From Escherichia coli (GTDB lineage Bacteria > Pseudomonadota > Gammaproteobacteria > Enterobacterales > Enterobacteriaceae): a stretch of 64,000 nt of DNA. This document shows positions 1,670 to 9,174 of this stretch, in pieces. The stretch is taken from NCBI RefSeq assembly GCF_003334785.1, contig NZ_QOWV01000002.1. One strand, given 5' to 3'. The position numbers were made by a program, and so were the translations under genes. The notes beneath the pieces are model-generated. The model was not told the DNA's origin. It ran no database searches and saw only the letters and a list, made by a program, of their open reading frames with translations. Each line of letters starts with the position of its first letter. Position 1 is the stretch's first letter.

Positions 1670-2958
1670 ATGAGCACCGCTTTGCTTGACGCCGTGGTGA
1701 AGAAAAACCGTGTGCGTTTAATTCCGTTTATGTTGGCGCTGTATGTGCTGGCGTTTCTCGACCGTTCGAATATCGGTTTTGCCAAACAGACCTACCAGAT
1801 TGATACCGGGTTGAGTAATGAAGCTTATGCGCTGGGAGCAGGCATTTTCTTTGTGGTATATGCGTTTCTGGGTGTTCCGGCGAATCTTTTGATGCGCAAA
1901 CTGGGGGCCAGAACCTGGATTGGTACGACAACACTGCTGTGGGGATTTCTTTCGGCAGCCATGGCATGGGCCGATACTGAAGCGAAATTTCTGATAGTTC
2001 GCACTCTGCTTGGTGCTGCGGAGGCCGGATTTTTCCCTGGTATGATTTATCTCACCTCGCAATGGTTTCCGCAGCGTAATCGCGCCAGCATTATGGGGCT
2101 GTTCTATATGGGCGCACCGCTGGCGTTAACACTGGGATCACCGCTTTCCGGCGCGCTGTTGGAGATGCATGGATTTATGGGGCATCCCGGCTGGTTCTGG
2201 ATGTTTGTGATTGAAGGATTGTTGGCAGTCGGTGCTGGGGTATTCACATTCTTTTGGCTTGATGACACACCGGAGCAGGCACGTTTTCTGAGTAAACAAG
2301 AAAAAACGTTGCTTATCAATCAACTGGCAAGTGAAGAACAACAGAAAGTGACTTCTCGGCTGAGCGATGCGCTGCGTAATGGCCGAGTCTGGCAACTAGC
2401 GATTATCTACCTGACCATTCAGGTGGCGGTTTACGGATTAATTTTCTTCTGCCGACCCAGGTTGCGGCATTGCTGGGAACAAAAGTGGGCTTTACAGCGT
2501 CGGTGGTCACCGCCATTCCGTGGGTTGCGGCCTTGTTTGGGACCTGGCTTATTCCGCGCTATTCCGATAAAACCGGCGAACGGCGTAATGTCGCAGCGCT
2601 GACATTACTGGCGGCGGGCATTGGTATTGGTCTGTCCGGGCTGCTTTCTCCAGTAATGGCGATCGTAGCGCTGTGTGTTGCAGCTATCGGGTTTATTGCC
2701 GTGCAGCCAGTGTTCTGGACGATGCCGACACAACTGCTTTCCGGTACGGCGCTGGCTGCGGGAATTGGTTTTGTAAACCTGTTTGGTGCAGTGGGCGGGT
2801 TTATTGCCCCGATCCTGCGCGTGAAAGCAGAAACGTTATTTGCCAGCGATGCGGCGGGATTACTGACGCTGGCAGCGGTGGCGGTCATCGGTTCGCTGAT
2901 TATTTTCACTCTGCGTGTAAATCGCACTGTTGCGCAGACCGACGTGGCACATCATTAA
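1670..2958 (+). pseudogene. rhmT: L-rhamnonate MFS transporter, reading frame broken by a 1-bp deletion near 2447-2451
   Basis: ATG at 1670 with AAGGAG at 1657-1662. Frame 2 ORF (1631..2602) and frame 1 ORF (2470..2958) together make one MFS transporter; the join is at ttcttc|tgccg where one base is missing, so frame 2 runs into …FFCRPRLRHCWEQKW… while frame 1 continues the real protein (LPTQVAALLGTKVGF…). Confidence 0.8.
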
Positions 2959-2975: not shown

Positions 2976-3779
2976 ATGAACGCATTATTAAGCAATCCCT
3001 TTAAAGAACGTTTACGCAAGGGCGAAGTGCAAATTGGTCTGTGGTTAAGCTCAACGACTGCCTATATGGCAGAAATTGCCGCCACTTCTGGTTATGACTG
3101 GTTGCTGATTGACGGGGAGCACGCGCCAAACACCATTCAGGATCTTTATCATCAGCTACAGGCGGTAGCGCCCTATGCCAGCCAACCCGTGATCCGTCCG
3201 GTGGAAGGCAGTAAACCGCTGATTAAACAAGTCCTGGATATTGGCGCGCAAACTCTACTGATCCCGATGGTCGATACTGCCGAACAGGCACGTCAGGTGG
3301 TGTCTGCCACGCGCTATCCTCCCTACGGTGAGCGTGGTGTCGGGGCCAGTGTGGCACGGGCTGCGCGCTGGGGACGCATTGAGAATTACATGGCGCAAGT
3401 TAACGATTCGCTTTGTCTGTTGGTGCAGGTGGAAAGTAAAACGGCACTGGATAACCTGGACGAAATCCTCGACGTCGAAGGGATTGATGGCGTGTTTATT
3501 GGACCTGCGGATCTTTCTGCGTCGTTGGGCTACCCGGATAACGCCGGGCACCCGGAAGTGCAGCGAATTATTGAAACCAGTATTCGGCGGATCCGTGCTG
3601 CGGGTAAAGCGGCTGGTTTTCTGGCTGTGGCTCCTGATATGGCGCAGCAATGCCTGGCGTGGGGAGCGAACTTTGTCGCTGTTGGCGTTGACACGATGCT
3701 CTACAGCGATGCCCTGGATCAACGACTGGCGATGTTTAAATCAGGCAAAAATGGGCCACGCATAAAAGGTAGTTATTGA
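2976..3779 (+). CDS. rhmA: 2-keto-3-deoxy-L-rhamnonate aldolase (HpcH/HpaI family)
   Basis: ATG at 2976 ([24 protein letters not shown]…) preceded by AAGGAA; the ORF-track entry 2673..3779 is an upstream extension overlapping rhmT. 267 aa. Confidence 0.92.
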
Positions 3780-3787
3780 TATCAAAG

Positions 3788-3812
3788 GCCCATGGGGATC
3801 GGCTGTGGGCCT
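3788..3812. terminator. Putative bidirectional hairpin between convergent rhmA and ypaA
   Basis: Inverted repeat GGCCCA(3788-3793)…TGGGCC(3807-3812) immediately after the rhmA stop. Confidence 0.4.
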
Positions 3813-3819
3813 GTGTTAA

Positions 3820-4005
3820 TTAGTGGTTATTCGCTGCCAGATCGGCTTCGCTTAGCTGGGTGGCCGCGAGCACCTGGTCACGATCAAAGCCCTGTTCCAG
3901 CATGCGCAAAGCAATTTTAATGGCTTGTTCATGCAAACCTTCTAATTTACCTTCCTGCCAGCCAATTTGATGTCCTTCCTGCCGCAGCCGTTCAGCAATA
4001 GTCAT
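3820..4005 (-). CDS. ypaA: Small ORF (61 aa) that is a tandem duplicate of the C-terminal tail of RpnB/YfaD
   Basis: 61-aa product [61 protein letters not shown] is close to identical to the last 56 aa of the adjacent yfaD product apart from a 5-aa insertion (KLEGL); own SD (AAGGAG, complement of 4012-4017) 6 nt upstream of the ATG. Confidence 0.6.
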   Translation of the reverse strand: MTIAERLRQEGHQIGWQEGKLEGLHEQAIKIALRMLEQGFDRDQVLAATQLSEADLAANNH

Positions 4006-4200
4006 TAATCTCTCCTTTTAATGACAGTTCGGAATATCAGCATCAGTGAGTTGGGTTGTCGCCAGCACAATCTCACGTTCAAAGCCCTGCTCCAGCATGC
4101 GCAAAGCAATTTTAATGGCTTGTTCATGCATACCTTCCTGCCAGCCAATTTGATGCCCTTCCTGCCGTAGCCGTTCAGCAATAGTCATTAATCTCTCCTT
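3826..4200. repeat. Tandem direct duplication (two units of about 185 bp) covering the 3' end of yfaD and all of ypaA
   Basis: 3841-4017 aligns with 4040-4200 at high identity, with a 15-bp indel (aaaccttctaattta present only in the ypaA copy); both copies end with cattaatctctcctttt. Confidence 0.8.
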
Positions 4201-4917
4201 TTGTAGTGGTGAACGTTCGGCAATCTCCTCAATAAAACGGGTGAAACGGGAGGTATCGCCGCATTGCAGCAGATAATTAAACAGTGTTTGTAGCTGGCTG
4301 TCATTAGTGAAGCCTCTAACCAAAAGCGTGGTGATCCTGTCGACCATGCCGATTAAATCGCGGTCGCGAATATGCTTTTGAATCAGTTCCAGCAGAGCTA
4401 TACGCCGATGTTGCATGATCTCATCGTCAGGTACGATGGTGATATCCACCAACGGAAAAGCTTCGGTGTACAACTGCCGGGCAAGTTGCGGATCGTCAAA
4501 CTCATCCAGCCAGTTGAGTGAGTACGGGTAAGGCGAGGTTTCGCCATGATAAAACAGCAACGGCACCACCAGCGGGACTCTGTCATAGCCTTTGTCCAGG
4601 TGACGCTGCATGGCGGCAGTGGCATAGCGCATTAGCCGAAAAGCCATATTCTTTTCTGCAGAGCTTTGATGTTCAATCACGCAGTAGATATAGCCGTCAC
4701 CGTCGCTGGTTTCCACGGACCACAAAACATCCGAGTAGTAAGCGCGTAAACTTTTTTCAATAAAACTAGTGGGTTCCAGGCGTAAGGTTTGCAGGTTGCA
4801 AAGCTTGCGCAGTGGTTCTGGTAAATGTATTTCGAGAAAATCCCGTGCGGTTTCGGGTGTGAACATAAAGGTTTTAAATACCGCATCATGCGGGGAGGAG
4901 GTTGTTGATTCGGTCAT
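4018..4917 (-). CDS. rpnB: YhgA-like (Rpn family) PD-(D/E)XK recombination-promoting nuclease / transposase_31-like protein
   Basis: 299-aa ORF recognised as YfaD/RpnB ([39 protein letters not shown]…). Confidence 0.85.
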
Positions 4918-5063
4918 GGTTGTCCGTCACCTGATATTTATGATGACGCGACATTACGGTTATCCCAGGCCTTTGACATCTGCCAGTTTCAGCCTTTGCG
5001 AGACGTTTTCAGAGGAATTTTCACTGCGTTGCAACGCATACATTGGGCACGGAATCGTGTACG

Positions 5064-5098
5064 CAAAAATGCCCGGTAACCACATGCTTACCGGGCAT
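5064..5098 (-). terminator. Rho-independent terminator after glpC
   Basis: On the minus strand: hairpin gcccggtaa…ttaccgggc (5069-5095) followed by a T-run (complement of aaaaa at 5064-5068), just downstream of the glpC stop at 5110. Confidence 0.5.
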
Positions 5099-5109
5099 CA
5101 GAAAGGAGT

Positions 5110-9174
<4,065 letters not shown>

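Follow-up and report, generated by a model that had tools for sequence, protein, structure and literature searches.

The rpnE-ypaA locus of Escherichia coli: a candidate gene-within-gene toxin–antitoxin pair and a tandem copy of its tail with a different repeat number

The survey of a 64,000-nucleotide stretch of Escherichia coli DNA (hereafter the window) points, on balance, to a minus-strand locus in which a gene-within-gene pair, RpnE_L/RpnE_S, is followed by ypaA, a tandem copy of the inner module that is maintained by selection, is probably orthogonal to its neighbour and exchanges repeat arrays with it. By sequence comparison, this locus is rpnE-ypaA from a strain closely related to E. 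coli K-12, with 2 SNPs over 3.4 kb relative to MG1655. The upstream gene (yfaD, b2244; 4018-4917, minus strand) codes for the 299-residue putative nuclease RpnE_L and bears the gene name rpnE in the RefSeq annotation; the preliminary description had called it rpnB, a name that belongs to yfcI. The intragenic antitoxins of rpn genes and the ypaA copy are already known from work published in 2019 and 2023, so that the earlier finding reproduces published results, with the gene-name correction as the sole addition. Of possible importance is the pattern across the population, in which a selected duplicate rarely shares the repeat 'code' of the neighbouring nuclease, and repeat arrays move between the copies. 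The inequality of YpaA and RpnE repeat numbers, the shared arrays and the genome frequency are absent from the main text of the 2019 and 2023 papers, and our search for follow-up literature on YpaA/RpnS turned up nothing beyond the 2023 paper and a commentary on it.

With regard to the full-length protein, residues 8-209 of RpnE match the Pfam family Transposase_31 (PF04754, YhgA-like; E = 7e-88), and RpnE scores above the cut-offs of the NCBIfam equivalog NF007418 (699.5 bits, cut-off 583) and of TIGR01784 (173.5 bits, cut-off 52.1). The Pfam scan of RpnE found the N-terminal domain alone, the tail family PF27070 appearing only in precomputed annotations, and no model of PADLOC-DB v2.0.0 (2023 library) matched RpnE or YpaA. 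That Rpn proteins are PD-(D/E)XK nucleases, as the preliminary description had stated, is borne out by earlier publications. Kingston et al. reported D11, D63, E82 and Q84 to be essential in RpnA; RpnE carries these residues and R94 at the same positions, all retained in 22 of 22 rpnE alleles, and the codons of the D11, D63, E82 and Q84 core lie at 4666-4887 on the minus strand. The pN/pS of the N-terminal domain is 0.06 among the same 22 alleles, and on both residues and pN/pS the nuclease looks intact.

In the recombination, toxicity and SOS assays of Kingston et al. (2017), RpnE was inactive, the sole inactive paralogue on overexpression, and RefSeq labels it 'inactive'; the toxin role of RpnE_L is thus deduced from its paralogues. 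In those constructs rpnE was expressed from a rhamnose promoter and, since the passages describing them do not state whether ypaA was included, the inactivity is not assignable to YpaA. Since the constructs retained the internal start, RpnE_S would probably have been co-expressed there. A literature search found neither a report on RpnE_L with its internal start silenced nor one of RpnE_S neutralising RpnE_L.

Within rpnE, a Shine-Dalgarno sequence, AAGGAG (4200-4195, minus strand; codons K240-E241), is followed by six nucleotides, AGATTA, and an in-frame ATG (4188-4186, M244), as the preliminary description had noticed. The ORF opened in this way, rpnE_S (4018-4188, minus strand), codes for a tail of 56 residues (MTIAERL...PNCH) that is the same as the C-terminus of RpnE_L, and the internal Shine-Dalgarno and start are retained at all loci examined. 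The pattern AAGGAG-N6-ATG occurs three times in the window versus 0.46 expected, the third match being the expected start of yfaV. The internal Shine-Dalgarno occupies the position at which Zhong et al. (2023, PNAS, PMC10400941) mutated the internal ribosome-binding site of rpnA (K240R, E241D, M244L). The same study, in which rpnE was included in the expression analysis, identified RpnS tails as the antitoxins of RpnL nucleases, each neutralising its own RpnL in the case of RpnA, RpnB, RpnC and RpnP2. Both start sites of the present locus have been mapped by retapamulin (Ribo-RET) and Onc112 ribosome profiling, and both RpnE_S and YpaA, the latter from a gene named rpnE_Ss, were detected by SPA tagging (10.1101/520783; PMC10400941). 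That rpn tails arise from internal translation starts and serve as antitoxins, which the preliminary description had put forward, was accordingly established in prior publications.

On the evidence of structural modelling, the tail folds as an HTH_Rpn_C domain of three helices, the first of them long. The AF2 model has helices at residues 3-37, 42-49 and 53-58 (pLDDT 75), and its best Foldseek match is 7TH0, the crystal structure of RpnA-S, with a probability of 1.0 but E = 0.06. YpaA matches 7TH0 end to end in phmmer (E = 3.4e-4), and precomputed Pfam annotations assign PF27070 (HTH_Rpn_C) to YpaA homologues. The resident four-amino-acid repeats of helix 1 in RpnE_S are located at 4132-4167 (minus strand). 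By homology with RpnA, RpnB and RpnP2, RpnE_S would bind RpnE_L via its long first helix and block DNA cleavage; the two would then represent a gene-within-gene toxin–antitoxin pair, with a likely anti-phage role.

The second gene of the locus, ypaA (b4543; 3820-4005, minus strand), codes for 61 residues and is a tandem duplicate of the Shine-Dalgarno, ATG and tail module alone. A direct-repeat search delimited the duplication at 3948-4202 (minus strand), with a period of 183-195 nt, and resolved it into 5' segments of 72 nt (4131-4202 and 3948-4019; 97% identity) and 3' segments of 102 nt (4036-4137 and 3841-3942; 84%); AAAAGGAGAGATTAATG is identical in ypaA and in the rpnE tail module. The tandem repeat announced in the preliminary description is therefore real, but in place of its single 15-bp indel there is a 12-bp indel, corresponding in the alignment to a KLEG repeat (AAATTAGAAGGT, 3937-3948, minus strand) present in ypaA and not in rpnE of this strain, and a separate 3-bp indel of one codon near the C-terminus. 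The first 19 residues of YpaA and RpnE_S are identical, as are 46 of the 61 aligned positions overall (75%, or 82% without gaps), whereas the 2019 preprint (10.1101/520783) gives an rpnE_S/ypaA identity of 98%; YpaA is far closer to RpnE_S than to RpnA_S. The published accounts derive ypaA from rpnE, with loss by deletion or fusion (Zhong et al. 2023; Meydan et al. 2019). The rpnE_Ss of Zhong et al., which they describe as a translated second RpnE_S copy with a parallel in rpnC_Ss, is the identical object: the profiling and tagging data support the idea of a separately translated second tail, and the belief that a duplicated intragenic antitoxin with a gene of its own was undescribed has to be abandoned.

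The Shine-Dalgarno of ypaA (4017-4012, minus strand) directly abuts the rpnE stop codon TAA (4020-4018), and its ATG (4005-4003) lies 12 nt past that stop, from which we infer that ypaA is co-transcribed with rpnE and probably translationally coupled to it. Between the convergent ypaA and yfaU genes, a G+C-rich hairpin (3786-3812, strand unassigned) with a 10-pair stem (-12.1 kcal/mol, z = -2.3) could form a terminator-like end of the rpnE-ypaA transcript; on the minus strand, its run of Ts is weak. A simple consensus scan of 3700-5150 revealed no sigma-70-like promoter, a result that speaks neither for nor against the internal transcription start reported at the locus from dRNA-seq.

Comparison of tail copy number across E. 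coli revealed the tandem junction in 3132 of 5426 complete genomes, the second copy being absent in about 42% of E. coli genomes. The glpC-rpnE-ypaA order is also found in E. fergusonii and in cryptic Escherichia clades. The C-terminal helices of the tails fall into two consistent types, E-type and Y-type (pS 0.35 between them), and rpnE is fused to a ypaA-type tail in strains that have a single copy, among them E. coli W and O157:H7. A single-copy ancestral state was rejected, because these alleles are exact fusions of the N-terminus with a Y-tail, and E. fergusonii and the cryptic clades carry both copies. A stand-alone tail attributed to 'Salmonella' (P0099) was also set aside, as it comes from short metagenome contigs with E. 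coli gene order and is thus not evidence for Salmonella; one of these contigs resembles an inverted assembly artefact.

These distribution data bear on whether ypaA is a neutral leftover of duplication, a pseudogene fragment without a function of its own. Such a view would agree with the RefSeq annotation of MG1655, where ypaA is a pseudogene, with the PGAP label 'incomplete, missing N-terminus' in most genomes, with the many E. coli that have no second copy, and with the lack of a reported ypaA phenotype in the literature. However, the ORF, Shine-Dalgarno and ATG are intact at every two-copy locus read, the sequence outside the repeats has a pN/pS of about 0.16, a sign of purifying selection that is not expected of a pseudogene, and YpaA has been seen in vivo. 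Furthermore, the arrangement is retained in E. fergusonii and the cryptic clades, so that ypaA is not the neutral remnant of one lineage envisaged in the preliminary description, and the split between E- and Y-type helices is old, with both copies undecayed. A neutral pseudogene was rejected on pN/pS and conservation, and we consider it very improbable: annotation pipelines mark ypaA as a pseudogene or fragment, while it behaves as a real gene.

A selected copy could, as the preliminary description proposed, provide a second dose of cognate antitoxin, binding the co-resident RpnE_L and buffering its toxicity, and the repeat numbers are the evidence that bears on this proposal. The strain-variable repeats enter directly after 4132, where other strains carry 1 to 8 extra; across strains the number of extra repeats ranges from 0 to 8 both in the RpnE tail and in YpaA, whose length consequently varies from 57 to 89 residues in steps of 4. 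This strain has none in rpnE (nE = 0) and one in ypaA (nY = 1), whereas a cognate free-standing RpnS is expected to share the repeat number of its nuclease. The pairs were drawn from two 'spread' samples of the 5426 genomes and from allele-based look-ups; the two numbers were unequal in all 21 complete two-copy genomes sampled (10/10 two-copy loci in the first sample, 11/11 in the second), and 14 of the 15 distinct (nE, nY) configurations were mismatched overall. Matched copies occur in one lineage only, (4,4), indicating that mismatch is not obligatory.

In RpnC, a mismatch of one repeat, with one extra in RpnC_S, abolished neutralisation (PMC10400941), and this pairing rule, known from RpnC only, together with the mismatch seen here, argues against a simple extra-dose role for YpaA. 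The divergence between E-type and Y-type C-terminal helices speaks in the same direction. The proposal of a cognate dose is nevertheless in line with the identical first 19 residues, Shine-Dalgarno and ATG, with the position of ypaA 12 nt downstream on the same transcripts as rpnE, with the published detection of the protein and with the (4,4) lineage. The inactivity of RpnE alone on overexpression would also fit unusually strong inhibition at the locus, but it is not attributable to YpaA, given what the passages on the constructs leave unstated. The repeat-matching rule, known from RpnC at a one-repeat difference, may not hold for RpnE. The sequence data make dose buffering less likely, and we regard a second cognate dose as unlikely. 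The mismatch shows a lack of co-evolution rather than selection for mismatch, since independent drift of repeat numbers would make matches rare anyway. If the RpnC rule does hold for RpnE, YpaA would serve as an orthogonal module or as a specificity-switching reservoir rather than a spare dose, and would offer a testable handle on Rpn diversification.

We therefore retain as the preferred reading a selected and orthogonal paralogue, YpaA being something other than an extra cognate antitoxin. Identical repeat-array DNA of 48 nt and 60 nt is found in rpnE of some strains and in ypaA of others, and the population data suggest that the tandem copies trade repeat arrays by recombination. Deletion between the copies would leave the nuclease domain of rpnE fused to the tail of ypaA, thereby re-coding toxin and antitoxin together. 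A stronger version, which we advance only tentatively and hold to be possible rather than probable, sees in the tandem a built-in re-coding device, YpaA being kept as an expressed, deliberately non-cognate tail while conversion, crossing-over or deletion switches the pairing code of RpnE. The repeat number and C-terminal helix of YpaA would then differ from those of the active copy, new arrays would enter rpnE by gene conversion or unequal crossing-over, and a single step would alter RpnE_L/RpnE_S pairing, for instance to evade a phage factor that is directed at the antitoxin or imitates it. If true, this would amount to cassette switching in a toxin–antitoxin or defence system, a proposal unstated in the published text.

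Phage pressure also enters a further alternative, in which YpaA would be a decoy or sensor, an orthogonal RpnS-like protein titrating a phage factor or cellular partner that otherwise acts on RpnE_S. An antitoxin fold with a mismatched interface, and repeat diversity as wide as that of YpaA (57 to 89 residues in steps of 4), would suit such a role, and Zhong et al. (PMC10400941) ascribe repeat diversity of this kind to phage pressure. Yet slippage of the 12-nt repeats and recombination explain the diversity without a decoy function, and a known phage factor is lacking; we give this alternative little credence.

The closest relatives of the locus are the L/S systems of RpnA, RpnB and RpnP2, which share with rpnE the PF04754 family and HTH_Rpn_C tail, the position of the internal Shine-Dalgarno and ATG (K240-E241, M244), and a tail of three helices, the first of which carries repeats of four amino acids. 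Reports of toxicity, neutralisation and anti-phage activity are confined to RpnA, RpnB and RpnP2, whereas the 2017 assays showed no activity for RpnE. With regard to the repeats, Zhong et al. (PMC10400941) cite as a precedent the TAEL repeats in HsdS of EcoR124I and EcoR124II; there, repeat number sets the length of the recognised DNA spacer, whereas in Rpn it sets the pairing between toxin and antitoxin proteins. Classical type II toxin–antitoxin systems with orphan or extra antitoxins resemble Rpn in that a small helical protein binds a toxic enzyme directly and thereby neutralises it. They differ in that the Rpn antitoxin is a separately translated C-terminal domain of the toxin itself, and in that the extra copy at rpnE is a tandem duplicate of this internal module.

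The long gene of this locus, referred to as rpnB (yfaD) in the preliminary description, is rpnE (b2244, formerly yfaD) in the RefSeq annotation of E. coli K-12 MG1655, from which the window differs here by two SNPs over 3.4 kb, and in Kingston et al.; the earlier name was a naming error. Its ORF occupies 4018-4917 (minus strand), gives a 299-aa translation and closes with a TAA stop at 4020-4018. RpnE matches Pfam Transposase_31 (PF04754, E = 7e-88) and passes its own NCBIfam equivalog model (699.5 bits, cut-off 583). In RefSeq, it is described as an 'inactive recombination-promoting nuclease-like protein RpnE'. The residues essential in RpnA (D11, D63, E82 and Q84), along with R94, are present in RpnE and kept in all 22 distinct rpnE N-terminal alleles collected, for which summed pairwise Nei-Gojobori counts, a rough measure with non-independent pairs, yield a pN/pS of 0.06 in the nuclease domain. 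With the catalytic residues kept and pN/pS low, the label 'inactive' would reflect overexpression assays performed with the internal start intact, not a visibly dead active site.

Within rpnE, an AAGGAG at 4200-4195 (minus strand) spans codons K240-E241 and lies 6 nt ahead of an in-frame ATG (M244, 4188-4186, minus strand) opening a 56-aa frame that ends in ...PNCH, bearing out the internal SD and start proposed for the tail (RpnE_S). The AAGGAG-N6-ATG motif occurs three times in the 64-kb window versus 0.46 expected from shuffling, and the third site coincides with the yfaV start as placed in MG1655; the motif thus marks translation starts in this window. Right after the rpnE TAA, the string AAAAGGAGAGATTAATG recurs and opens ypaA (3820-4005, minus strand), a 61-aa ORF. 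Two direct-repeat families returned by the repeat finder (72 nt at 97% identity, 4131-4202 versus 3948-4019, and 102 nt at 84% identity, 4036-4137 versus 3841-3942), together with this ORF, confirm the downstream duplication of the tail module. The copies had been said to differ by a single 15-bp indel, but pairwise alignment and BLASTP revealed a 12-bp indel (AAATTAGAAGGT, 3937-3948), corresponding to an extra KLEG repeat in ypaA, and a separate one-codon indel near the C-terminus. RpnE_S and YpaA share 46 of 61 aligned positions in the window (75%, or 82% without gaps); a value of 98% appears in a 2019 preprint (10.1101/520783). Given the 12-nt gap, devoid of a terminator, and the hairpin 3' of ypaA (3786-3812), ypaA would be co-transcribed and translationally coupled with rpnE.

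With regard to the neighbouring genes, the glpC-rpnE intergenic region contains, immediately 3' of glpC, a 14-nt inverted repeat (ATGCCCGGTAACCA / TGCTTACCGGGCAT, 5069-5098, 2-nt loop, 93% complementary), probably the glpABC terminator. The yfaV gene (rhmT, L-rhamnonate transporter) carries a 1-bp deletion relative to MG1655 (2440-2455, plus strand, TTCTTCCTGCC to TTCTTCTGCC), and the frame from ATG 1670 ends at 2602 (ORF 1670-2602), not about 2959; either yfaV is frameshifted in this strain or the base was lost through a sequencing error.

The copy-number comparison suggested along with the preliminary description was run on 5426 complete E. coli genomes, 5421 of which harbour the rpnE locus. 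A 101-nt query running from the end of rpnE into the start of ypaA, across the two-copy junction, is covered in 3132 of the 5426 (58%); the remaining genomes match just its SD and start segment, and thus have one copy. The glpC-rpnE-ypaA order is also found in E. fergusonii and cryptic Escherichia clades, indicating that the duplication predates E. coli. In single-copy strains, including E. coli W and O157:H7, the rpnE N-terminal domain is fused to a ypaA-type tail, exactly the fusion that recombination between the near-identical 5' parts of both units would generate.

Other variants of the locus were noticed. In some single-copy strains (L006 and L015, loci fetched from E. coli W and relatives, 1-380), the annotation gives the neighbouring yfaU as an incomplete pseudogene ('aldolase/citrate lyase family protein'), so the region 3' of rpnE is variable too. 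In E. coli UTME-10 (L014, 1-1833), an IS2 insertion cuts rpnE after ~211 codons, and the tail and ypaA are gone. The single-copy rpnE of three Logan assemblies (L052-L054, about 573-1486) has a 1-bp deletion at nt 582; in the shifted frame, a TGA stop overlaps the internal ATG (GATTGATG), and the 242-aa nuclease domain and 61-aa tail form two overlapping genes, resembling a classical toxin-antitoxin pair. On an ENA metagenome contig of 2190 nt (L022), the rpnE-tail/ypaA pair is present in two copies inverted relative to each other, most likely through misassembly; the 'Salmonella enterica' source name of the contig's protein is unsupported, the gene context being E. coli-like.

In MG1655 RefSeq, ypaA (b4543) is flagged as a pseudogene, and its counterparts in most PGAP genomes (L002-L016, L067-L077) are labelled 'hypothetical protein, incomplete, missing N-terminus'. 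A pseudogene or partial CDS is ruled out by the intact ORF, purifying selection and published translation. SD, ATG and ORF are intact for both modules in every two-copy locus read, and the same rough pairwise counts give, outside the repeats, a pN/pS of ~0.16 for free-standing ypaA alleles and 0.08 for the rpnE tail; ypaA, with its signals intact and its value of ~0.16, is thus a maintained gene. E-type and Y-type tails differ consistently in the last helix, where the Y-type reads ...(F/I)DRDQVLAATQLSEADLAANNH, and diverge with a pS of 0.35 and a pN of 0.13; their first 19 codons show two synonymous differences and are otherwise identical. YpaA homologues belong to the precomputed Pfam family PF27070 (HTH_Rpn_C). 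YpaA aligns end to end with the sequence of the RpnA-S crystal structure 7TH0 (E = 3.4e-4), with a 12-residue insertion precisely at the repeat position. Its AlphaFold2 model (mean pLDDT 75) comprises three helices, of which one is long (3-37) and the others are short, and the best PDB fold match is 7TH0, with a probability of 1.0 but E = 0.06.

The two copies were further compared through nE and nY, the numbers of extra four-amino-acid repeats after ...GWQEG in the rpnE tail and YpaA, respectively. The window has the configuration (0,1). A first spread sample of ten two-copy loci, the window and nine others, comprises (0,1) three times, (3,1), (5,0), (8,1), (8,4), (5,2), and (5,1) twice; a second, of eleven genomes, comprises (0,1) four times, (5,2), (4,0), (5,0), (8,4), (6,4), (1,4) and (8,6). 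Allele-based look-ups added (0,4), (0,5), (6,5), (6,4) and the matched (4,4). Hence nE differs from nY in 21 of 21 sampled loci (the window and 20 fetched complete genomes), and 14 of the 15 distinct configurations are mismatched, the (4,4) state occurring only in the lineage with the YpaA allele P0044. The mismatch reflects an absence of co-evolution of the two repeat numbers and is not evidence of selection for mismatch, since two independently drifting numbers would seldom match. Such an absence is unexpected for a cognate second antitoxin, and the pattern counts against YpaA being a 'dose buffer', i.e., a second antitoxin dose for RpnE, a reading that we disfavour. The same repeat-array DNA (48 nt, KIEGWQEGKLEGLQEG; 60 nt, KIEGWQEGKLEGLQKGKVEG) belongs to rpnE or to ypaA depending on the strain, indicating that arrays move between the tandem copies. 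The free-standing proteins resembling YpaA in the public collection measure 57, 61, 65, 69, 73, 77, 81 or 89 aa. We infer that the tandem pair may constitute a reservoir for changing the rpnE tail.

Much of this system has been described. In Meydan et al. (bioRxiv 10.1101/520783), each of the five rpn genes shows retapamulin ribosome-profiling peaks at internal in-frame starts, and the rpnE internal product is likened to the independent gene ypaA. According to Zhong et al. 2023 (PNAS, PMC10400941), every RpnS tail is made, RpnE_S and YpaA being seen by SPA tags. They showed for RpnA, RpnB and RpnP2 that the RpnS protein acts as antitoxin to the toxic RpnL nuclease, and added in vitro experiments on RpnA. 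In its crystal structure, RpnA_S forms a dimer of three-helix bundles, and RpnP2 gives protection against T-even phages. The earlier proposal that Rpn tails from internal starts inhibit the toxin is therefore largely the published model (10.1101/520783, PMC10400941), and the view of ypaA as a separately translated second tail copy is likewise borne out in print by the SPA-tag detection. A duplicated intragenic antitoxin had been thought undescribed, wrongly: the same study names ypaA rpnE_Ss, describes a similar rpnC_Ss, and considers the downstream copy to be derived from the upstream gene and losable by deletion or fusion. It also reports for RpnC that one repeat added to either partner abolishes neutralisation, which is restored when both receive it. 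RpnE_S would be expected to neutralise full-length RpnE_L, and a mismatched YpaA would not, the latter prediction being drawn solely from the RpnC experiment. Both the central observation and the bulk of its interpretation are already in print, and the novelty compared with the published Rpn systems lies in the repeat-number mismatch and the array-exchange pattern.
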